From sequence record NC_001901.1: a stretch of 46,375 nucleotides of DNA; one strand, 5' to 3'. Shown here one piece after another: positions 5,983 to 42,915 of the stretch. Both the position numbers and the translations under genes were made by a program. Position 1 is the stretch's first letter; each line of letters starts with the position of its first letter. The stretch is from Escherichia phage N15. The notes under the pieces were generated by a model. The model made no database searches. It worked only from the letters and a program-made list of their open reading frames with translations, and had not been told where the DNA came from.

Positions 5983-6004
5983 AGCCGCCTGCGCGGCTTT
6001 TTTT
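5983..6004 (+). terminator. Intrinsic-terminator-like hairpin between the D-like and E-like genes
   Basis: AGCCGC-ctgc-GCGGCT followed by T7. Confidence 0.6.
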
Positions 6005-6017
6005 ATGGGAAAAATCT

Positions 6018-7043
6018 ATGTCCGTTTACACCACTGCCCAGCTGCTGGCGGTCAATGAGAAGAAATTCAAATTCGATCCGCTCTTCCTGCGCATCTTTTT
6101 CCGCGAAACTTATCCCTTCAGTACAGAGAAGGTTTACCTGTCGCAAATTCCTGGCCTGGTCAACATGGCGCTGTACGTCTCGCCGATTGTCTCCGGCAAA
6201 GTGATCCGCTCCCGTGGCGGCAGCACGTCTGAATTCACGCCAGGTTATGTGAAGCCGAAACACGAAGTTAACCCACTGATGACTCTTCGCCGCCTGCCGG
6301 ATGAGGATCCACAGAACCTCGCTGACCCGGTCTACCGCCGTCGCCGCATTATCCTCCAGAACATGAAGGATGAAGAGCTGGCGATTGCGCAGGTCGAAGA
6401 GAAGCAGGCTGTTGCGGCGGTACTCAGTGGGAAATACACCATGACCGGGGAAGCGTTCGAGCCTGTTGAAGTTGATATGGGGCGCAGCGCTGGTAACAAC
6501 ATTGTCCAGGCCGGTGCGGCTGCGTGGTCCTCCCGCGACAAAGAAACGTATGACCCGACCGATGACATTGAAGCCTACGCGCTCAACGCCAGCGGTGTGG
6601 TCAACATCATTGTGTTCGATCCGAAGGGCTGGGCGCTGTTCCGTTCCTTCAAGGCAGTGAAGGAGAAACTGGATACGCGTCGAGGCTCTAACTCTGAGCT
6701 GGAAACCGCCCTGAAAGACCTGGGCAAGGCAGTTTCCTACAAGGGGATGTATGGCGATGTGGCCATCGTGGTCTACTCCGGCCAGTACATCGAAAACGAC
6801 GTCAAAAAGAACTATCTGCCAGACCTGACGATGGTCCTGGGTAACACTCAGGCGCGCGGCCTGCGTACCTATGGTTGCATTCTTGATGCCGATGCCCAGC
6901 GAGAAGGTATCAACGCTTCGACGCGTTACCCGAAAAACTGGGTGCAAACGGGCGATCCGGCGCGTGAATTCACCATGATTCAGTCAGCCCCGCTGATGCT
7001 GCTGGCAGACCCGGACGAGTTCGTGTCCGTCAAGCTGGCATAA
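6018..7043 (+). CDS. Major capsid protein (lambda gpE-like)
   Basis: 341 aa, same size and position as lambda E. MSVYTTAQLLAVNEKKFKFDPLFLRIFFRETYPF is E-like. Confidence 0.95.
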   Translation: MSVYTTAQLLAVNEKKFKFDPLFLRIFFRETYPFSTEKVYLSQIPGLVNMALYVSPIVSGKVIRSRGGSTSEFTPGYVKPKHEVNPLMTLRRLPDEDPQNLADPVYRRRRIILQNMKDEELAIAQVEEKQAVAAVLSGKYTMTGEAFEPVEVDMGRSAGNNIVQAGAAAWSSRDKETYDPTDDIEAYALNASGVVNIIVFDPKGWALFRSFKAVKEKLDTRRGSNSELETALKDLGKAVSYKGMYGDVAIVVYSGQYIENDVKKNYLPDLTMVLGNTQARGLRTYGCILDADAQREGINASTRYPKNWVQTGDPAREFTMIQSAPLMLLADPDEFVSVKLA

Positions 7044-24774: not shown

Positions 24775-24830
24775 TATCAGCACACAATTGCCCATTATAC
24801 GCGCGTATAATGGACTATTGTGTGCTGATA
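24775..24830. promoter_or_regulatory. telRL: telRL telomere resolution site (56 bp; central 22-bp telO palindrome at 24792..24813)
   Basis: TATCAGCACACAAT-TGC-CCATTATACGCGCGTATAATGG-ACT-ATTGTGTGCTGATA. Dyad axis lies between 24802 and 24803. Recognised as the N15 TelN target. Confidence 0.95.
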
Positions 24831-32800: not shown

Positions 32801-33860
32801 TGATGTCGAATCCGGTGCGGAGGCCTGTGTTGCCTTTTCCTTCAGCTGAGGATTTGCGGTCGTTATCGAGAGCGCAAGTGATTTGCGCAGCCGGGTACAT
32901 GTTCACCAGCTGCTCGACAACGTGAATCATGTTGTTAGCGGAAACCGCAATGACTACCGCGTCAAAGCGTTTTTTCGGGTCGTTTCTGGTCGCCAGCCAG
33001 ATGGATGCCCCGGTGGCGAAACCCTCTGCAGTCGCAATTTTTTGCGCCCCCTGCAGGTCGCCAATAACAAAGCATGCACCGACGAAATCACCGTTAGTGA
33101 TGGCGCTGGTCTGGAACTTGCCACCATTCAGATCGATACGTTGCCAGCCAACAATCCGCCCGTCTTTTCTTCCGTCCAGGTGGGACAGAGGTATCGCCAT
33201 GTAAGTTGTTGGTCCACGGCTCCATTTCGCACTGTCGTGACTGGTCACGCGACGTATATCACAAGCGCCAAATACGTCACGAATTCCCTTTTTTACCGCA
33301 TAAGGCCAGGAGCCATCTTCAGCTGGCGAATGTTCCCAGGCGCGATGGAAAGCCAACCATCCAAGCAGGCGTTCCTGCTCCATCTGATTGTTTTTTAAAT
33401 CATTAACGCGTTGTTGTTCAGCTCGGAGGCGGCGTGCTTCAGCCTGGCGCTCCATGCGTGCACGTTCTTCTTCCGGCTGAGCGACCACGGTCGCACCATT
33501 CCGTTGCTGTTCACGGCGATACTCCGAAAACAGGAATGAAAAGCCACTCCAGGAGCCAGCGTCATGCGCTTTTTCAACGAAGTTAACGAAAGGATAACTG
33601 ATGCCATCCTTGCTCTGCTCAAGGCGTGAATAGATTTCCACACGGCCTTTAAGGCTCTTCTGCAGAGCTTCCGGGGAGGAATTATTGTAGGTGGTATAGC
33701 GCTCTACACCACCGCGCGGATTGAGCTGAATCTTATCAGCACACGCAGGCCAGTTGATACCGGCCATCTTCGCCAGCTCAGTCAGCTCATCACGTGCCGC
33801 GTCAAGCAGTGAAAACGGATCGCTGCCAAAGCGCTCCGCGTAGAATTCTTGTAAGGTCAT
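29886..33860 (-). CDS. repA: Replication protein RepA (primase / Toprim plus helicase multidomain replicase)
   Basis: 1324 aa. Toprim-like TAEGFATGASI...CALDNDRKSSAEGKGNTG. Walker A VRAGMGSGKST. Plasmid-type replicase known as the only N15 gene needed for plasmid replication. Confidence 0.95.
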   Translation of the reverse strand: MTLQEFYAERFGSDPFSLLDAARDELTELAKMAGINWPACADKIQLNPRGGVERYTTYNNSSPEALQKSLKGRVEIYSRLEQSKDGISYPFVNFVEKAHDAGSWSGFSFLFSEYRREQQRNGATVVAQPEEERARMERQAEARRLRAEQQRVNDLKNNQMEQERLLGWLAFHRAWEHSPAEDGSWPYAVKKGIRDVFGACDIRRVTSHDSAKWSRGPTTYMAIPLSHLDGRKDGRIVGWQRIDLNGGKFQTSAITNGDFVGACFVIGDLQGAQKIATAEGFATGASIWLATRNDPKKRFDAVVIAVSANNMIHVVEQLVNMYPAAQITCALDNDRKSSAEGKGNTGLRTGFDIMEKFSGVKCVYPTFEDDPELECSDFNDLHSLRGLKEVARQLTRNHLSRATDLLSITLNKLRTLPRLNRRTFAKELLRAVDIGMLTCPVPNSPKELMRLFSSTLRDMGIAEIYNGTVKDHITRRLNRKCRAAQTSRSFSERITNPNLRPSHITYKRFETSRMTDEVMTYAAQLQGIVIVRAGMGSGKSTGLLRPLMLQSTRGVSVAHRVSLIGGLHEMMTEGKGAKADILHYQDPGYQEMAPYANKLTICINSILKGCWQPLMRQHDFFGFDEATQGLRAILAGRAMENPVGVFNTLIDALARTEEHAIMVDADANDLLVDLAELAMKRREELGLPAWLQIHVIELPVDVRNRETNKPIRVFYTEKNRIMTEVIAAVQRGERIMLATDSSTFAEDVTMQLRLQFPDKKFLCVNQKNKQEKEVDDFTNQPKVMVKKYDGLIYSPSISSGVSIEEKHFHRHFGMFCGEVVPSDAIQMLRRDRTAQEYIIGFDKLRGKRETDPEKIKRAYAQALLETAGHSGLLTDVVFDGDRISLGVANSSFMQLKIKAAALEASARNDYASNMICIMHDDGYQVAPMATDALANSIGKDLRKEARELVFEQLMERHLSVDTPDQAEHDELIKKRTLSLDEQAQLVRWDIEKELQLDVDEVALKFYFDGGLKKVRLFETMQLDEITARRLDREEALIHFTYAYRVAGRWQQFVTTAMTREQADAEFQAKFPAITDYRVKSTPAVEIGMRGFYTLKSATLQQYFRDCGIDPKTLEGEADMDALKRARDNLLTPERRDLLNNVLRIGGFNTEKGKKKAPADLCIGILESMGLSSKTRRARDGDARPTMRSIDPDSVEFLMNIVEKRREAGLSIHARKVEKTTIEVDRDLDLNIDIHGNPRSKTEHVPDAPQSVIIQALEAIPVAVPEAWAENALPATEMEAVRLWPVASIARTFASLYMTEFMDLLSVREIRLLKAFLSQRQAVAI
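30141..30215. other. ori: Candidate replication origin core inside the 3' part of repA
   Basis: TTGGATC / GATCCAA inverted repeat (30141..30147, 30175..30181) flanks the AT-rich catgtatatctatattta. Several GATC sites. GGTGG-tttttt-CCACC hairpin. The N15 ori is reported to lie within the repA 3' region. Confidence 0.3.
33479..33496. promoter_or_regulatory. Centromere-like palindrome (SopB site) inside repA
   Basis: GAGCGACC-AC-GGTCGCAC, one arm mismatch relative to the other three sites. Architecture resembles F sopC TGGGACC-AC-GGTCCCA. Confidence 0.7.
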
Positions 33861-33932
33861 TTTTTAGCCTTTCCATGCGAATTAGCATTTTTTCGGGTTG
33901 AAAAAATCCGCAGGAGCAGCCACAATAAACGC

Positions 33933-34013
33933 ACTATCTTTCTGAAGGACGTATCTGCGTTATCGTGGCTACTTCCTGAAAAAGGCCCGAGTTTGCCGAC
34001 TCGGGTTTTTTTT
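33933..34013 (+). ncRNA. Candidate antisense RNA to the repA leader
   Basis: + strand promoter TTGAAA-17-CACAAT (33898..33926). Hairpin AACGCA...TGCGTT. Terminator CCCGAGT-ttgccg-ACTCGGG plus T8 (33986..34013). Confidence 0.45.
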
Positions 34014-34078
34014 CGTCTTTTTTCGGCTGCTACGGTCTGGTTCAACCCCGACAAAGTATAGATCGGATTAAACCAGAA

Positions 34079-34094
34079 TTATAGTCAGCAATAA
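34079..34094. promoter_or_regulatory. CB-type operator overlapping the -10 (TATAAT, minus strand, 34078..34083) of the putative repA promoter
   Basis: TTATAGTCAGCAATAA matches the 16-bp TTAT....ATAA operators of the cB-cro region (12/16 to TTATAGCTGGCTATAA). Confidence 0.6.
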
Positions 34095-34108
34095 ACCCTG
34101 TTATTGTA

Positions 34109-34717
34109 TCATCTACCCTCAACCATGAACGATTTGATCGTACCGACTACTTGGTGCACAAATTGAAGATCACTTTTATCATGGATAACCCGTTGAGAGT
34201 TAGCACTATCAAGGTAGTAATGCTGCTCGTCATAACGGGCTAATCGTTGAATTGTGATCTCGCCGTTATTATCACAAACCAGTACATCCTCACCCGGTAC
34301 AAGCGTAAGTGAAGAATCGACCAGGATAACGTCTCCCGGCTGGTAGTTTCGCTGAATCTGGTTCCCGACCGTCAGTGCGTAAACGGTGTTCCGTTGACTC
34401 ACGAACGGCAGGAATCGCTCTGTGTTGGCAGGTTCTCCAGGCTGCCAGTCTCTATCCGGTCCGGTCTCTGTCGTACCAATAACAGGAACGCGGTCTGGAT
34501 CAGATTCAGTGCCATACAGTATCCATTGCACGGGCTTACGCAGGCATTTTGCCAGCGATAGCCCGATCTCCAGCGACGGCATCACGTCGCCACGTTCTAA
34601 GTTTTGGACGCCCGGAAGAGAGATTCCTACAGCTTCTGCCACTTGCTTCAGCGTCAGTTTCAGCTCTAAACGGCGTGCTTTCAGTCGTTCGCCTCGTGTT
34701 TTCATACCCTTAATCAT
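34109..34717 (-). CDS. cB: Prophage repressor CB (HTH_XRE N-domain plus degenerate S24/LexA-like C-domain)
   Basis: KARRLELKLTLKQVAEAVGISLPGVQNLERG HTH. C-domain YALTVGNQIQRNYQPGDVILVD is CI/LexA-like. Divergent from cro. Confidence 0.9.
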   Translation of the reverse strand: MIKGMKTRGERLKARRLELKLTLKQVAEAVGISLPGVQNLERGDVMPSLEIGLSLAKCLRKPVQWILYGTESDPDRVPVIGTTETGPDRDWQPGEPANTERFLPFVSQRNTVYALTVGNQIQRNYQPGDVILVDSSLTLVPGEDVLVCDNNGEITIQRLARYDEQHYYLDSANSQRVIHDKSDLQFVHQVVGTIKSFMVEGR

Positions 34718-34728
34718 AAATGATCTCT

Positions 34729-34744
34729 TTATAGCTGGCTATAA
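34729..34744. promoter_or_regulatory. Operator 1 in the cB-cro intergenic region
   Basis: TTATAGC-TG-GCTATAA, a 16-bp palindrome. Confidence 0.65.
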
Positions 34745-34754
34745 TTTTTATAAA

Positions 34755-34770
34755 TTATACCTAGCTTTAA
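34755..34770. promoter_or_regulatory. Operator 2 in the cB-cro intergenic region
   Basis: TTATACCTAGCTTTAA, 12/16 match to operator 1. Confidence 0.55.
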
Positions 34771-34777
34771 TTTTCAC

Positions 34778-34793
34778 TTATTGATTATAATAA
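34778..34793. promoter_or_regulatory. Operator 3, overlapping a TATAAT hexamer (34783..34788) just upstream of cro
   Basis: TTATTGATTATAATAA with the same TTAT....ATAA ends. The TATAAT sits only 10 nt before the cro ATG. Confidence 0.55.
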
Positions 34794-34798
34794 TCCCC

Positions 34799-35014
34799 AT
34801 GAAACCCGAAGAACTTGTGCGCCATTTCGGCGATGTGGAAAAAGCAGCGGTTGGCGTGGGCGTGACACCCGGCGCAGTCTATCAATGGCTGCAAGCTGGG
34901 GAGATTCCACCTCTACGACAAAGCGATATAGAGGTCCGTACCGCGTACAAATTAAAGAGTGATTTCACCTCTCAGCGCATGGGTAAGGAAGGGCATAACA
35001 GTGGAACTAAATAG
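34799..35014 (+). CDS. cro: Cro-like repressor (YdaS/Cro HTH family)
   Basis: MKPEELVRHFGDVEKAAVGVGVTPGAVYQWLQAGEIPPLR, 71 aa, divergent from cB. Confidence 0.85.
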   Translation: MKPEELVRHFGDVEKAAVGVGVTPGAVYQWLQAGEIPPLRQSDIEVRTAYKLKSDFTSQRMGKEGHNSGTK

Positions 35015-35747
35015 CATTCGGGCCTGTGTATCTACGGCTCTGTCAGATATTCATTATCTCCAGCGCGGCATCCTTGAGGTCCAGCTGGAGCAGCTGCGTC
35101 TCGCAAGCTCTGACCGTTTCACTGACAAACCAACCAGAACGATCTGCATCGGCGATACGGAATCTTATGAAATCTCTGTGCCTGCCGAACCCGTTCGTTA
35201 TCACGTTGGTAAATCCTTCAAACGGTCTTCAATGCTGCTGACTGAATTAGATTTCATGACCGCCAGCTGGCGACGTGCCATTGAGCAGTTAAACAGTGAA
35301 GAAACTGCATGGTTGCATTATTGCTATGGATGCAAACCAAATTATAAGAATGATGTAACTGTTTGCCAGTGGCTGTGGATGGATTTTTTAATTGCGCATT
35401 CCAGAGCGGGCTTTAAAAAAATGAAAGCCCCAACAAAAAAAATTATGCAGAGATTAACTTACTACGGAATACAGCAAGTTAAATGTGAAATATTTCACGA
35501 ACTGCATGATTCGGATATTGATGGAATGGAGCGAGACGAACACATAAGTTCTTTAGTGGGTGTATCCGTCGAAAGCTGGCGTAAGGATTATAAAAAACGC
35601 TGGTTATTACTGAAATCACGATGCATGCATCTTAACGATACCGCGTTATTAAATGCGGCGGAGAAGCGCTGTGAAATCATCGAAAGCCATCGTGCAAGAA
35701 GTGCCGACCTGCCTGTGTCAGCAGGTTATGCTCAGGAAACCAGATAA
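35001..35747 (+). CDS. Q: Late-gene antiterminator Q-like protein
   Basis: Follows cro. GTG at 35001 after AAGGAAG (an in-frame ATG at 34959 is an alternative). N15 gene order cB-cro-Q is established. Family assignment is from position and memory. Confidence 0.65.
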   Translation: MELNSIRACVSTALSDIHYLQRGILEVQLEQLRLASSDRFTDKPTRTICIGDTESYEISVPAEPVRYHVGKSFKRSSMLLTELDFMTASWRRAIEQLNSEETAWLHYCYGCKPNYKNDVTVCQWLWMDFLIAHSRAGFKKMKAPTKKIMQRLTYYGIQQVKCEIFHELHDSDIDGMERDEHISSLVGVSVESWRKDYKKRWLLLKSRCMHLNDTALLNAAEKRCEIIESHRARSADLPVSAGYAQETR

Positions 35748-35973
35748 GCCTGTACTCCGGTACTCTGGCCTCCGTAACGAGTACATCATCTGGTGCCCGA
35801 CATGCGGCTATCGGACTCTTCCTGACAGTAACAGGCAATCCGTAATTACTGAATGGTATTTATCAAATCAACCAGGCAACAAGCATATAGAAAATATCTG
35901 GCTCAAACGTTATCTGGAAATCAAAGAGGGTGCGACCTCGGTCGCACGAGATAATGAAGAATACTCCATTTAA
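35653..35973 (+). CDS. Small Cys4 zinc-ribbon protein, Lar (restriction alleviation)-like
   Basis: PTCLCQQ...YIIWCPTCGYRT...SVITEWY fits the C-x-C...CxxCG...W pattern of Lar-family proteins. Overlaps the Q 3' end. Start uncertain (35653 or GTG 35671). Confidence 0.5.
   Translation: MRRRSAVKSSKAIVQEVPTCLCQQVMLRKPDKPVLRYSGLRNEYIIWCPTCGYRTLPDSNRQSVITEWYLSNQPGNKHIENIWLKRYLEIKEGATSVARDNEEYSI
35930..35947. promoter_or_regulatory. Centromere-like palindrome (SopB site)
   Basis: GTGCGACC-TC-GGTCGCAC with perfect 8-bp arms. Confidence 0.75.
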
Positions 35974-36157
35974 GCAAGGCCCCATGTCGCGCACTGATGC
36001 GGAAAATATTTCTGACCTTTATAAGAAAAAAGGTCATGAAGTAGTTATCGCAGAATCCATGAATTTAGATGGAACTTATTATGTTTACGTTACGCTACCT
36101 GAATTAAAGCAAGAGCCTAAGCCATCCAAAACCTTTCAACAAAGAATATGGGAGTAA
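35954..36157 (+). CDS. Hypothetical protein
   Basis: 67-aa ORF from the ATG at 35954. Ends 2 nt before the RBS-linked start of the next gene. Confidence 0.5.
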   Translation: MKNTPFKQGPMSRTDAENISDLYKKKGHEVVIAESMNLDGTYYVYVTLPELKQEPKPSKTFQQRIWE

Positions 36158-36159
36158 CA

Positions 36160-37074
36160 ATGGTAAATATCCAAAAAACGATTTTAGCGATGATTATGCA
36201 TAAATGGCTTAAGAGCGATTATGTTGTCATTGACACGGAAACAACAGGGCTGGGCGAATATGCTGAGATTATCGAAATTGCGATCATCAATATGCGCGGA
36301 GAAGTTTTGCTGGACACTTTGGTTAAACCGACCAAACCGATCCCTCCTGAAGTAACCGAAATAAACCACATCACAAACGAAATGGTCGCCAGTGCACCAG
36401 CGTGGTGTGATGTGTTCCCGAAGGTGCTGGCGATCATCAGTAAACACAAATGGCTGGCCTGGAATTCTGGTTTCGATGCTCGCATGCTGGAACAGACCTG
36501 CTTGAACACGATTTTTTTAAATAAAAATGCTTATTACGTGACCGCAATGGTTTCCCGTATTCACACGAGCCATATTGACGCTAAAGCAGTCTACGACACG
36601 TGGTACGGAGAGTACGATGCGAAGCACCAGGCTTTCAAGCGCCAGAGCCTGACAATCGCAGCTGCCCGACACGGTGTATTGCTGGAAGGAGCACACCGCG
36701 CTCTGGCCGACTGCAAAATGGTTCTGGCCGTACTGCAAAAAGTCTGCGCTCCCGTTCCTCAGATTGAAAGCTCTGTCGAGAAAGACCTGCCACCCTGCCC
36801 GTTCTGTTATGGGCCACCATCGTTGTTCACCCATTACCTGAATGACAAAGGCTATTCCCCTTTATATCAGCCCGTGAATTATGGCGATGATGGCCTGTAC
36901 GTAGGTTCGTATGTCTTTTGCCATGAATGCGGCGCACAGGGTGAAGAAGTAGGAGGCCACGCCTACGAAGATTCAGATGTAGAGCAGCTCGAAGCAGCAG
37001 CCAGGAATGTCTGGTCCGATCGCAACGAACGCCACCGCGACCTGTATACAGCCTCTCGAAACGTCGAAGAGTAA
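36160..37074 (+). CDS. DEDDh (DnaQ-like) 3'-5' exonuclease fused to a C-terminal Lar-type zinc ribbon
   Basis: Exo I VVIDTETTGL, Exo II AWNSGFDARML, Exo III GAHRALADCKM. C-terminus LPPCPFCYG...YVFCHECGAQG...AARNVWSDRN. GGGAG lies 5 nt before the ATG. Confidence 0.8.
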   Translation: MVNIQKTILAMIMHKWLKSDYVVIDTETTGLGEYAEIIEIAIINMRGEVLLDTLVKPTKPIPPEVTEINHITNEMVASAPAWCDVFPKVLAIISKHKWLAWNSGFDARMLEQTCLNTIFLNKNAYYVTAMVSRIHTSHIDAKAVYDTWYGEYDAKHQAFKRQSLTIAAARHGVLLEGAHRALADCKMVLAVLQKVCAPVPQIESSVEKDLPPCPFCYGPPSLFTHYLNDKGYSPLYQPVNYGDDGLYVGSYVFCHECGAQGEEVGGHAYEDSDVEQLEAAARNVWSDRNERHRDLYTASRNVEE

Positions 37075-39292: not shown

Positions 39293-39514
39293 ATGGATAA
39301 AAAAGCATTGTTATTCGAACGCCTTCGGCAGAGAAGCGAAAGCAGTCTGGCCAGCGGAGGTGATGGGTTTATTTTTGCCTCAATGCTGGCGTTCGACATC
39401 GGTCTGAACACAAGAACGATCCGGGGGATGCTGGACTCTGCTGTGAAAAATGGAACCCTGGAAAAAAAAGAACGTGGAGCTGGCCGTGCACATAAGTACC
39501 GGACAATTCAGTAG
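39293..39514 (+). CDS. Small winged-helix-like protein, hypothetical regulator
   Basis: GGAGGG RBS. 73 aa ending KNGTLEKKERGAGRAHKYRTIQ. Confidence 0.55.
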   Translation: MDKKALLFERLRQRSESSLASGGDGFIFASMLAFDIGLNTRTIRGMLDSAVKNGTLEKKERGAGRAHKYRTIQ

Positions 39515-39563
39515 TTTAATCAAAAAAATTGCCAAAAAATGGTTGTATCGTTTGCGGATTTCC

Positions 39564-39579
39564 CTGTGTTTATATACAG
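39564..39579 (+). promoter_or_regulatory. LexA (SOS) box overlapping the promoter of the small antirepressor gene
   Basis: CTGTGTTTATATACAG is an exact CTGT-N8-ACAG. TTGCGG-17-TACAGT promoter-like hexamers overlap it. Confidence 0.8.
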
Positions 39580-39603
39580 TATTAAATAACCTTGGTAGAC
39601 AAA

Positions 39604-39831
39604 ATGGTATACGATTCAATGACAGATGCAGCCGTGTCATGTTGTGAAAAACTTGATTCCCAGCTAAGCGATCTCGATGCTGTCCTGGATATGGTGAGCA
39701 CCGTTATGGCCTCACCAGAGGCCAGCCTTCATATGAATGAGGCGGCACGTCTTCTGCGCATGTCTCGTAATATGGTCCACAGATGCAAGGATGTTGTCGC
39801 GGATGAGCTCATTCGGCAGGCTGGCGAATAA
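39604..39831 (+). CDS. antC: Small LexA-controlled antirepressor
   Basis: 75-aa ORF directly downstream of the LexA box. N15 induction through a LexA-regulated antirepressor acting on CB is established. Assigning it to this ORF rests on the box position. Confidence 0.65.
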   Translation: MVYDSMTDAAVSCCEKLDSQLSDLDAVLDMVSTVMASPEASLHMNEAARLLRMSRNMVHRCKDVVADELIRQAGE

Positions 39832-39868
39832 AAAAGGGAAAGGCGAGATACCCTCGCCTTTCCCTTGT
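39832..39868. terminator. Bidirectional terminator between antC and the convergent antitoxin gene
   Basis: GGGAAAGGCGAG-atacc-CTCGCCTTTCCC, a 12-bp stem with an A-run on the left and T-rich sequence on the right. Confidence 0.8.
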
Positions 39869-39895
39869 TACTTCACCTGCAGATACTCGTCTTAA

Positions 39896-40183
39896 TCAAT
39901 ACACAGCATGAATATCAATGCTTGCACCGCAAGCCTTAGCGTATCGAGATAGTGTCTTCATGCTGGCACCTAGTGGGTTGCTTTCCAGGCGGCTAATTGC
40001 TGATGGCTGCAACCCCATGCGTTCAGCCAGCGCAGACTTCGTCAGGCCAGCTTTCTCCCTCATCTCGTAGAGCATTTCAACCATCGCCAACTCCTTGTCG
40101 GCATCTTCGTAACCCCGGATAGCCTCCGGGGTATTGAGCAGTTCTTCTTTCACCTGATTAAATGGGATGCCTTTTACTTTCAT
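39896..40183 (-). CDS. Antitoxin, HTH_XRE family (HigA-like)
   Basis: REKAGLTKSALAERMGLQPSAISRLES HTH. Start overlaps the toxin stop. Confidence 0.8.
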   Translation of the reverse strand: MKVKGIPFNQVKEELLNTPEAIRGYEDADKELAMVEMLYEMREKAGLTKSALAERMGLQPSAISRLESNPLGASMKTLSRYAKACGASIDIHAVY

Positions 40184-40494
40184 TAGCTCATCTCCTTCAG
40201 ACGCGTTCTGGCGATATCAATTGCGTGGGTAGGCGTCTTTTGCGTCTTCTTAACAAATGCATGTAGCAGATAAATTTCGTTACCTACCGCGTAAGCGTAC
40301 AGCGTTCTCGCTATGTTTTTATCCCCTACCCTTAGTTCGAAAAGGCCACCACCGATAACGCGGCTATGAGGCATTTTCAGCTTGTTCCCTTCACTTTCCA
40401 GTCTCTCGATCAGCCGGGTCATGCGACCGCGTAGCTCATCAGGTAATTCTTTAAGCTCATCCAGCGCTGCCGGGTGGGTTATCACGTTAAACAT
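40183..40494 (-). CDS. Toxin of the Gp49 / HigB-RelE superfamily
   Basis: MFNVITHPAALDELKELPDELRGRM...GGGLFELRVGD...RTLYAY...IYLLHAFVKKTQKTP fits the Gp49-like family. ATG at 40494 after AGGAGGT. Confidence 0.8.
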   Translation of the reverse strand: MFNVITHPAALDELKELPDELRGRMTRLIERLESEGNKLKMPHSRVIGGGLFELRVGDKNIARTLYAYAVGNEIYLLHAFVKKTQKTPTHAIDIARTRLKEMS

Positions 40495-40516
40495 AGTATA
40501 ACCTCCTGATGTGGAA

Positions 40517-40571
40517 AATATACTAAAAACGTAAAAATCACACAATAGGCAAATTTCACTAAAAAGTGAAA
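40517..40571 (-). promoter_or_regulatory. Toxin-antitoxin promoter (TTGTGT-17-TATATT) with upstream TTTCAC-N6-GTGAAA palindrome
   Basis: On the minus strand the -10 is at 40517..40522 and the -35 at 40540..40545. The palindrome is at 40554..40571. Confidence 0.5.
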
Positions 40572-40660
40572 AATAAAGCTGGATGTGCTTATTGGGCAGA
40601 GTTACAGTTTGTGTCGTTGAGAGGGGTAAAGCCCATAACCGCATGAATCTGGAGTAAATT

Positions 40661-40882
40661 ATGAATTATCAAGGCAACGAAAAAATGCGCAAAGATGCGG
40701 CAGATATTTCTAACGAGCTGTATGAGTTATGGCAGAAAGTGAAGCGTTTTGAGCGTGAATACAGCTTTAACAGTAAAAACCTGACCGACCGACTGGCTGG
40801 CCGCCTTATTGGAACGATGGAGCCTAAGCTGGCAGAGTTGAACAAATTTATGGCCGATGTCGATTACCAGTTCGAAGATTAA
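40661..40882 (+). CDS. Hypothetical protein
   Basis: 73-aa ORF with GGAG upstream, divergent from the TA operon. Confidence 0.55.
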   Translation: MNYQGNEKMRKDAADISNELYELWQKVKRFEREYSFNSKNLTDRLAGRLIGTMEPKLAELNKFMADVDYQFED

Positions 40883-40891
40883 GGAGGCTCT

Positions 40892-41119
40892 ATGCACGCG
40901 AAAGAAATACGCCGGAATATGACCGAAGAAGCGTTAAGCGTTGAGTTCGTAATGCGTGGGCATCCACGCATTAGCCTGGCAGAGCTGAGTGAAGCCTGCC
41001 GCTTAAGCCAGGCATCAACAGAGTTTATTATTGAGCAGATGGTTTGTTTTGGTGTGGCGCGGCGCGGCGCTTTCGGAAGATACTCACTAACAAACGAGTA
41101 TGAAAACGGAATAATCTGA
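40892..41119 (+). CDS. Small winged-helix-like hypothetical protein
   Basis: AAGGAGG RBS. ISLAELSEACRLSQASTEFIIEQMVCFGVARR resembles a wHTH. Confidence 0.55.
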   Translation: MHAKEIRRNMTEEALSVEFVMRGHPRISLAELSEACRLSQASTEFIIEQMVCFGVARRGAFGRYSLTNEYENGII

Positions 41120-41122
41120 TAT

Positions 41123-41142
41123 CGTGCGACCATGGTCGCACG
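41123..41142. promoter_or_regulatory. Centromere-like palindrome (SopB site), perfect 20-bp
   Basis: CGTGCGACCATGGTCGCACG. Lies 20 bp upstream of the candidate late promoter -35. Confidence 0.8.
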
Positions 41143-41161
41143 GAATAGAAAACGAAAAAGG

Positions 41162-41190
41162 TTGGCAAAACAGCTATTTTTAGGTATCTT
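41162..41190 (+). promoter_or_regulatory. Candidate late promoter (PR'-like)
   Basis: TTGGCA-17-TATCTT. A -10-like TAAGTT lies in the initial transcribed region. A strong terminator follows about 50 nt downstream. Confidence 0.45.
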
Positions 41191-41229
41191 TTTTCTAAGT
41201 TGGGATTTTTACGCCTGACTTCCGAATAA

Positions 41230-41250
41230 CCGCCTACGGGCGGTTTTTTT
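41230..41250 (+). terminator. Rho-independent terminator closing a ~55-nt leader transcript (tR'-like)
   Basis: CCGCC-tacg-GGCGG followed by T7. Confidence 0.8.
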
Positions 41251-41386
41251 GTGCCTGAAAAAGTGGGCGCGGGACGAGTTGCAGCTCATCCCGCGGTCAA
41301 CCCATGCCAGAGGTATAGGCTGAACCCAAAGCCCACCCGCGATGCGCATCGCTGGGTTAGCTTACCCAGGCAGAACCATAATAGCT

Positions 41387-42475
41387 ATGTTAAAAACTAC
41401 ACAAATCAATGGAGCGCAGCTCGTTTGCGCAGATTCTCTGCAATTCATAAAAACCATCCCTGATAATTCCGTAAACCTGATCGCGACAGACCCGCCCTAT
41501 TTTGGCGTTAAGTCGAACGACTGGGACAACCAGTGGGAAAGTGACGCGGACTTTTTGGGCTGGCTTGATGAGTTTCTGGCGGAGTTCTGGAGGATACTGG
41601 CCCCAAATGGAAGCCTGTATATGTTTTCCGGTTCGCGGCTTGCGGCAAAAGTTGAATTACTTACCCGCGACCGTTTCAATGTTTTGAACCACATCACCTG
41701 GGCTAAACCGAGCGGTGTATGGCGGCGGCAAAATAAAGAGAGCCTGCGAGCATTCTTCCCGGCAACCGAGCGCATCATATTCGCTGAACATTACGGCGCG
41801 TCTGGCTATGCGAAAGGTCAGTCGGGTTATGCCAGCAAATGTGCAGAGTTGCGGAAAGACGTATTTTCTCCGTTGATTGGAGCATTTGCATCAGCCCGAC
41901 AGCAGCTGGGGATTTCAGCTGCGGACATCAACGCTGCGACAGGGAAAAAGATGTGTTCACACTGGTTTTCCTCGTCGCAGTGGCAGTTACCGTCGCTGGA
42001 TGACTTCAACAAGCTGCATGAGCTGTTTATGCAGCGGGCGCAAGTTCTCGGCGTAGCATGTCCTCCGCCATTCGATATCGGGTATAGCGAGCATGAAAAG
42101 CAGTATGCCGATCTAAAAACGCAATACGATGCGGTTAAAGCGCAATACGATGGCCTTAAGGCTCAGTATGAAAGCCTGCGCCGCCCGTTCTCTGTGACTG
42201 CAGATGTTCCCTATACGGATGTTTGGGAGTTCCCACCGGTGCAGTATTACCCAGGGAAACACCCGTGCGAGAAGCCAGCTGCGATGATGGAACATATCAT
42301 CAGGAGCAGCTCTCGCCCCGGCGATGTAGTCGCCGACTTCTTCATGGGGTCCGGTAGTACGATTAAGGAGGCTCTGAAGCTTGGGCGTAAGGCCATAGGC
42401 GTAGAAATTGAAGAAGAGCGTTACCTGCAGACAGTAGAAGAAGTTAAAGAAGTAGTAAAAAAAGAAGAGAGTTGA
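41387..42475 (+). CDS. DNA N6-adenine/N4-cytosine methyltransferase (beta class, PF01555-type)
   Basis: Motif IV IATDPPYF near the N-terminus and motif I DFFMGSGST near the C-terminus. Confidence 0.85.
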   Translation: MLKTTQINGAQLVCADSLQFIKTIPDNSVNLIATDPPYFGVKSNDWDNQWESDADFLGWLDEFLAEFWRILAPNGSLYMFSGSRLAAKVELLTRDRFNVLNHITWAKPSGVWRRQNKESLRAFFPATERIIFAEHYGASGYAKGQSGYASKCAELRKDVFSPLIGAFASARQQLGISAADINAATGKKMCSHWFSSSQWQLPSLDDFNKLHELFMQRAQVLGVACPPPFDIGYSEHEKQYADLKTQYDAVKAQYDGLKAQYESLRRPFSVTADVPYTDVWEFPPVQYYPGKHPCEKPAAMMEHIIRSSSRPGDVVADFFMGSGSTIKEALKLGRKAIGVEIEEERYLQTVEEVKEVVKKEES

Positions 42476-42489
42476 TCTCACTTATACAA

Positions 42490-42510
42490 CCCGCCTCTGG
42501 CGGGTTTTTT
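42490..42510 (+). terminator. Rho-independent terminator after the methyltransferase gene
   Basis: CCCGCC-tct-GGCGGG followed by T6. Confidence 0.8.
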
Positions 42511-42609
42511 ATTGGTGCCGTCCAGGCGACATCTTTGCGTTATTCCGTAATGCATCGGGCGGCGTTTCATCTGCACACAGCCTCCGCAAATATAGCGAGG
42601 TAAGAGACC

Positions 42610-42915
42610 ATGAGAATGAACGATCACTCAGGGAACATCTTCACGCAATTATTTGCGTGGCTTGGAACCATAGCTGCAGCGCTGGGTTTTACCACCCAAG
42701 ACATGATTTACATGTTTTTCGGGGCTGTGGGGCTTCTAATCTCCCTTGCATCCTTCATCAACGGAAGAATTGATGCACGCCGCCGTCGGAAAGAAGATGA
42801 GAAGCGAACGGCAATGATAAGGGCTTACCTGGAAGAAGTTAGCGATAAGCCTATCGAAGAACGTCCGACAGCGGTGAGCGTAGTAGCGGATGTACTCGCT
42901 AAGGCAGGCGAGTGA
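42610..42915 (+). CDS. Holin, class II / pinholin-like, with a possible dual start (Met1-Arg2-Met3)
   Basis: Two TMDs (IFTQLFAWLGTIAAALGF, MIYMFFGAVGLLISLASFI) and a charged C-tail. Precedes the endolysin. Confidence 0.8.
   Translation: MRMNDHSGNIFTQLFAWLGTIAAALGFTTQDMIYMFFGAVGLLISLASFINGRIDARRRRKEDEKRTAMIRAYLEEVSDKPIEERPTAVSVVADVLAKAGE

Follow-up and report, generated by a model that had tools for sequence, protein, structure and literature searches.

A conserved promoter, terminated leader and centromere palindrome ahead of the late genes of phage N15, very probably the late promoter p52

The stretch between positions 41162 and 41250 of the window, by which we mean the whole 46,375 nucleotides of the linear phage-plasmid N15 (Escherichia phage N15, NC_001901.1), is very probably p52, the major late promoter of this phage, together with a region for the utilisation of Q and the first terminator of its leader, a judgement that extends to the course of the mechanism set out below, in which the exact start, the pause and the site of Q binding are predicted ones. 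We take the locus to be the late promoter p52 of Ravin, Rech and Lane (J Bacteriol 2008, 190:3538); the published locus and the one analysed here coincide in the genome, in the promoter upstream of gene 52, in the adjoining palindrome IR3 and in a Q gene situated some 5.4-6 kb away, with no difference in kind. By those authors p52 was reportedly confirmed with Northern blots and lacZ fusions, the antiterminator activity of Q is said to have been demonstrated, terminators were reportedly mapped between p52 and the first ORF, and mutation of IR2 or IR3 is said to have delayed lysis. The promoter, with its terminated leader and its adjoining IR3, is therefore already published, so that the observation is correct and is not new; because the recruitment of the partition system to the late promoter was published in 2008, the finding adds no new biology. 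What is said here of promoter activity, of antitermination by Q and of the effect of IR2 and IR3 follows what that work is reported to have found.

The earlier note on this DNA, made from the sequence alone, had placed a promoter TTGGCA-17-TATCTT at 41162..41190, and the two hexamers are present there on the + strand, the -35 (TTGGCA, 41162..41167) and the -10 (TATCTT, 41185..41190) being separated by a spacer of 17 bp, recovered by the promoter scan and conserved in the alignment of relatives. The hexamers match the consensus in 9 of 12 positions, a score that is not significant by itself: shuffled sequence would be expected to yield 7.5 sites of this quality, and the scan of 8.4 kb turned up 4. 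From IR3 to gene 52 (41142 to 41387 scanned), this is the sole sigma-70-like site of the + strand. An A-rich tract, AAACGAAAAAGG (41150..41161, + strand), abuts the -35 on its upstream side, its AAAAAG being invariant in the 21 aligned relatives, and it may play a role similar to that of a UP element. The transcript would begin at A41197, seven bases past the -10. Five bases past the -10 comes TAAGTT (41196-41201), followed by GGG (together 41196..41204, + strand, covering predicted transcript positions -1 to +8); this is the -10-like hexamer that had been claimed for the initial transcribed region, it is strongly conserved, and its conservation and its parallel in lambda PR' make of TAAGTT-GGG a candidate sigma-70-dependent pause element, presumably part of the Q-utilisation site. 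Two other promoter readings were rejected: TAAGTT as the true -10, on account of the absence of a conserved -35 at 17 bp and the presence of the conserved TATCKT 5 nt upstream, and CTAACA-17-AATAAT at 41087-41115 as the late promoter, on account of its location, which is within gene 51 and on the upstream side of IR3.

What takes this arrangement beyond chance is its conservation. Homologous regions were gathered from phage, plasmid and viral-contig collections, in the form of an alignment of 21 N15- or phiKO2-type sequences (A1) and of a wider set of 31 distinct promoter-leader sequences that includes the phages of the PY54 type. The p52 block can be considered more than a coincidence because its parts (palindrome, -35, -10, TAWGTTGG, hairpin and a terminator stem that does not vary) are found again in this order in all 31 sequences, which come from related telomere phages and plasmids. 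In the 21-sequence alignment the palindrome is conserved, AAAAAG(G/C)TTGGCAA is invariant and the spacer is variable, and after the spacer come TTTTTAGGTATCKT, then TTTT(C/G)-TA(A/T)GTTGGG, and then a variable leader; the -10 of the relatives reads TATCKT or TATTGT. The hexamers, the 17-bp spacing and TAWGTTGG are thus retained amid neighbouring bases that drift. Across the set of 31, the element past the -10 takes the form TA[A/T/C]GTTGG[G/C], with one TAAAGTTGGC variant, and it is the block with the highest conservation, even in relatives with other hexamers; TTTTC-TAAGTTGG is conserved more strongly than the promoter hexamers themselves. The terminator stem CCGCC/GGCGG and its T7 are invariant in every relative, the loop varying both in sequence and in length.

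The phages of the PY54 type possess a different palindrome, TTGGGACCNNGGTCCCAA, at about 7 bp from the -35, and other promoter hexamers, and they retain the order of the parts, the hairpin and an identical terminator stem. In PY54 itself (L033 in our set) one copy of the palindrome is found 230 bp past Q, and another immediately upstream of the late promoter. The PY54-type palindrome GGGACCNNGGTCCC amounts there to 11 copies, among them those at 34395, 40977 and 41122, against 0.05 expected. The region of phiKO2, for its part, is at the sequence level the orthologue of the N15 p52 region (~70% identical), and in its record (GenBank AY374448) a "putative plasmid partitioning site", a "putative late promoter" (with -35 and -10) and a "terminator" are annotated upstream of gene 52.

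The palindrome that precedes the N15 promoter is IR3 (GTGCGACCATGGTCGCAC, 41124..41141, without strand), a centromere site of the SopB type. It is an exact match, with flanks that fit the published IR3 oligonucleotide, and it ends exactly 20 bp ahead of the -35, as had been claimed for a perfect SopB palindrome, its centre lying ~64.5 bp upstream of the predicted start; its position with respect to the -35 does not change across the N15- and phiKO2-type relatives of the alignment. The window contains 4 copies of GTGCGACCATGGTCGCAC (33479, 35930, 41124 and 45561), against 0.02 expected by chance. Oligonucleotides for N15 IR1-IR4 have been published with their flanks (PMC7205306, Table 4), and they match the window, flanks included, at 33468, 35920, 41114 and 45551, the few mismatches being confined to cloning ends and to one base of IR1. 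The sequence of the palindrome is identical to the published N15 IR3, and would accordingly be read as a repeated site of the partition-protein type. The copy known as IR2 (35930..35947, without strand), identified by the palindrome search and by the match to the published oligonucleotide, is located 183 bp downstream of Q, and the annotated partitioning site of phiKO2 is at the same 183 bp past its own Q.

Two further observations concern these palindromes. IR4 on the + strand (45560-45579) and IR2 on the - strand (35930-35947) both have a T-rich stretch after them and were rated terminator-like by the scan, and for this reason the centromere palindromes might also impede transcription. In the Klebsiella phages 48ST307 and Kpn_R1 (L017, ~931-995, and L025) two tandem centromere palindromes, ~45 bp apart, are found upstream of the late promoter.

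In the mechanism that we prefer, SopB at IR3 (20 bp ahead of the -35) and at IR2 would aid late expression, and the published proposal is reportedly that a Sop-mediated pairing of IR2 and IR3, in other words a loop, brings the Q gene and p52 together. SopB at IR3 could instead activate or repress p52 directly, touching RNA polymerase from about -64, with no IR2-IR3 loop to deliver Q, and to such a contact we would give an unlikely but not negligible place. The palindrome is indeed always immediately upstream of the -35, at 20 bp in the N15 and phiKO2 types and at ~7 bp in the PY54 types, positions that resemble those of upstream-bound activators. However, the spacing in one class differs from that in the other by ~12-13 bp, unlike what a fixed protein contact would predict, and a partitioning site is found just past Q in N15, in phiKO2 and in PY54, as looping predicts; looping is also what the published work reportedly favoured.

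The Q gene itself (35001..35747, + strand, 5.4 kb upstream of p52) had been proposed to encode a Q-like protein, and so it does: it belongs to PF06323 (E 1.4e-110) and is named "Q antiterminator" in U45242, the record of the N15 immB region, which is 99.7% identical over 2701 nt to 33900-36600 of the window, the two Q sequences being 99.6% identical. With the Q of phage 82 the relationship is distant (26.7% identical), and a search of solved structures with Q found no relative. Two conserved stretches of the 21-sequence alignment, TTTTTAGG ahead of the -10 and TTGGCAA, are candidates for Q binding at p52. Elsewhere in the genome, the telRL palindrome of N15 is at 24775-24830, which together with the U45242 match and the IR1-IR4 oligonucleotides identifies the window as N15, and the closest full-length relatives in the phage and plasmid collections searched are Enterobacter elements (84-96% identity). 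Downstream, the p52 block stands ahead of gene 52 (41387..42475, + strand), a DNA N6/N4 methyltransferase (PF01555, E 3.6e-50) that is the first gene of the late operon and whose start, ATG 41387, is conserved across relatives; the order of the genes that follow p52 includes this methylase, a lysozyme (PF00959) and a DUF2514 protein. A scan of genome contigs for gp51 gave pattern hits, with no confirmed relative among them.

With these elements in place, the course of events would be the following. Host sigma-70 RNA polymerase would initiate at about A41197 from TTGGCA-17-TATCTT, the exact start being a predicted one, and without Q transcription would halt after ~54 nt at the CCGCC/GGCGG-U7 terminator. 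After induction, the phage-82-family Q (35001-35747) would engage the promoter-proximal polymerase through a putative binding site at p52, most likely while sigma-70 holds the polymerase at TAAGTT-GGG, in a pause predicted at +16/+17 as in lambda. Polymerase modified by Q would then resist the leader terminator and those that come later, and the methylase, lysis, head and tail genes would therefore be expressed.

The terminator of the leader, AACCGCC-UACG-GGCGGUU with its U run (41228..41250, + strand), is supported by the sequence, the scan and the fold. Its stem (41228-41245) has 7 pairs, 5 of them G-C, and the T7 run (41244-41250) contributes its first two Ts to the closing of the stem, so that the strong terminator CCGCC-tacg-GGCGG plus T7 claimed at 41230-41250 is present as described; counted from A41197, the terminated leader is of ~54 nt, against the ~55 claimed. 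Further intrinsic terminators had also been claimed downstream, and all five were found on the + strand: past gene 52 (42488..42513), inside the tail gene region (15307..15331) and near the end of the tail genes (20021..20046) by the terminator scan, and, read directly from the sequence where the scan missed them, across the stop codon of DUF2514, which is the last of the lysis genes (43982..44005), and inside the head gene region (5984..6004). It is plausible that these terminators make antitermination necessary.

Taken as 56 nt, the leader RNA has a minimum-energy fold of two hairpins and then the U run (-20.4 kcal/mol, z = -3.3). Hairpin 1 (AAGUUGGG-loop-CCUGACUU, 41197..41221, + strand) persists in 29 relatives out of 31 and is weakened in the two in which GGG becomes GTG, and in the PY54-type sequences it shows a compensatory change, GGG/CC to GGC/GC, in which the 3′ half shifts and the pairing is maintained. 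The predicted late transcript would thus open with this hairpin, which takes up its initial 25 nt, and the 5′ half of the hairpin is the TAAGTTGGG element. In two viral contigs (L013, ~1840-1850; L133, ~6300-6330) an insertion with IS-like ends (TGAAGTGAACCCC... / ...GGGGTTCACTTCA) is lodged in the loop of the leader terminator and divides the terminator in two.

A fold of this stability, ending in a U run and with both hairpins retained in relatives, is also what would be expected if the locus were a stand-alone gene for a small RNA of ~54 nt that acts in trans, late attenuation being incidental to it. We consider this very improbable, because conservation is lowest in the single-stranded linker that joins the hairpins and in the loops, which leaves the leader RNA with no conserved seed, because the bases that are conserved are promoter-proximal DNA signals, and because the late genes come straight after, without any other promoter candidate. 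When 39500-43000 was searched against Rfam no hit rose above chance, the sole one being RNAI, below threshold (E 0.52), and a search for tRNA and tmRNA across the whole window found none.

The reading as a late promoter with a Q-utilisation region gains from the comparison with known systems. In lambda, the -10-like element is rebound by sigma-70, and Q loads onto the complex while it is paused at +16/+17. Read side by side, lambda PR' has TTGACT-17-TAAATT, the gap TGACTC, the -10-like AACGAT and then GGG-TTAATT-CG, and N15 p52 has TTGGCA-17-TATCTT, the gap TTTTC, the -10-like TAAGTT and then GGG-ATTTTTA-CG. Common to both are: (i) a sigma-70 promoter, with a second -10-like hexamer and GGG at the start of the transcript; (ii) a C and a G at +16/+17 when the start is set seven bases after the -10, which in N15 are 41212..41213 (+ strand); (iii) and finally, an intrinsic terminator ahead of the late genes, that of the 6S RNA in lambda, which is overridden by Q, in N15 reportedly so. 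By analogy, a sigma-dependent pause would be expected at N15 p52, and its predicted position would be this C and G. The differences are that the leader is of ~54 nt in N15 and of 194 nt in lambda, that N15 Q (PF06323) is of another Pfam family than lambda Q, that the Q gene is 5.4 kb from the promoter in N15 and adjacent to it in lambda, and that a site for a partition protein flanks the promoter in N15, unlike lambda PR'.

The modules of the phage 82/933P type share with N15 the family of Q and leaders of some tens of nt that end in a GC-rich terminator, but their -10-like element (TATGTT or TATTTT, with GCCAA) is ~14 nt after the -10, as opposed to 5 nt in N15, and their promoter comes directly after Q, without a centromere palindrome. 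A pause in the lambda position is thus not guaranteed, because in these closest lambdoid modules the -10-like element lies ~9 nt further downstream and the Q of N15 is of the phage-82 family; where the polymerase pauses may vary from lineage to lineage. In Hafnia phage yong2 and in a 933P-type phage, the promoter, the -10-like element and the terminator of a short leader are found directly 3′ of Q and precede a gene-51-like gene; since both phages carry promoter and terminator directly past a Q of the same family, the two can be considered a single unit. Lambdoid phages with a same-family Q (L028, 1551-1645; L031, 1555-1645) have CTTGCA-17-(G/C)ATATT directly past Q and TATGTTGCCAAA ~14 nt later, and their terminator is ~55 nt from the predicted start. 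The Q-adjacent lambdoid form is probably the ancestral Q-qut module, which in N15 has been split by 5.4 kb.

That 41228-41250 serves mainly to terminate the early-right transcript (genes 50 and 51), TTGGCA-17-TATCTT having arisen by chance and the late start being elsewhere, is scarcely credible: in its favour, gene 51 stops 110 nt ahead of the terminator, and the promoter has a modest score in a region that shows no enrichment of promoter-like sites, but against this stand the hexamers, 17-bp spacing and TAWGTTGG that persist while their neighbours drift, the promoter-terminator unit of yong2 and the 933P-type phage directly past Q and ahead of the gene-51-like gene, and the annotators of phiKO2, who also called a late promoter and a terminator. 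The general proposal of the earlier note, namely a late promoter beside a SopB site that depends on Q and has a short leader closed by a terminator, is supported by the conservation, by the annotation of phiKO2, by the family of Q and by the lysis genes downstream.

Between the terminator and the methylase there is a second structured element, the 5′ leader of gene 52 (41261..41386, + strand), recognised from the pairing in the alignment, from compensatory changes and from independent folds. In it the stem P1 (GUGGGC/GCCCAC) encloses a three-way junction whose other arms are P2 (41269-41294) and P3, and after the junction come hairpin P4 and then a short hairpin or start region. In an alignment of N15, phiKO2 and PY54 (A2), 94% of the cells pair, against 25-49% in slid controls, and compensatory changes are found in P2 and P4. 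When viral contigs were scanned for the pattern and the hits filtered, 23 distinct leaders remained, all of which end at the start codon of the methylase, and some of which come from phages without a p52-type promoter. RNAalifold lost the hairpins when given the most diverse leaders as aligned by MAFFT; independent single-sequence folds were used because that alignment left the hairpins out of register, and those of 21 diverse leaders gave mostly the same architecture, with P1, the P2/P3 junction and two more hairpins. The leader has no Rfam match in the search of 39500-43000, and it is present in phages of the N15-like, PY54-like and lambdoid groups. It travels with the methylase gene rather than with the promoter, because in yong2 a small gene separates it from the Q-proximal promoter. 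In PY54-type phages a degenerate copy of their palindrome forms hairpin P2 of the methylase leader. The longest methylase ORF opens at ATG 41342, inside P4, a codon that is absent in phiKO2-type relatives.

To our knowledge, neither the geometry of the pause, nor leader hairpin 1, nor the structured leader of the methylase has been described before. We would put forward, tentatively and with somewhat less than even confidence, that the p52 region holds conserved regulatory layers additional to those already published, namely a lambda-like pause at +16/+17 despite a Q of the phage-82 family, possibly with a hairpin in the nascent RNA, and a structured RNA of ~125 nt as a new cis-regulatory element. 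If this were so, the ~125-nt RNA could control the translation of the methylase or stabilise the late mRNA.

In summary, the locus is instructive in that a plasmid partition system, SopB with centromere sites dispersed over the genome, has come to aid a phage late promoter whose antiterminator gene is kilobases away. To this the present analysis adds comparative evidence, in that centromere and promoter remain paired in telomere phages with two types of palindrome, that the methylase gene is preceded by a structured leader absent from Rfam, and that the TAAGTTGG element is the most constrained portion of the promoter region.
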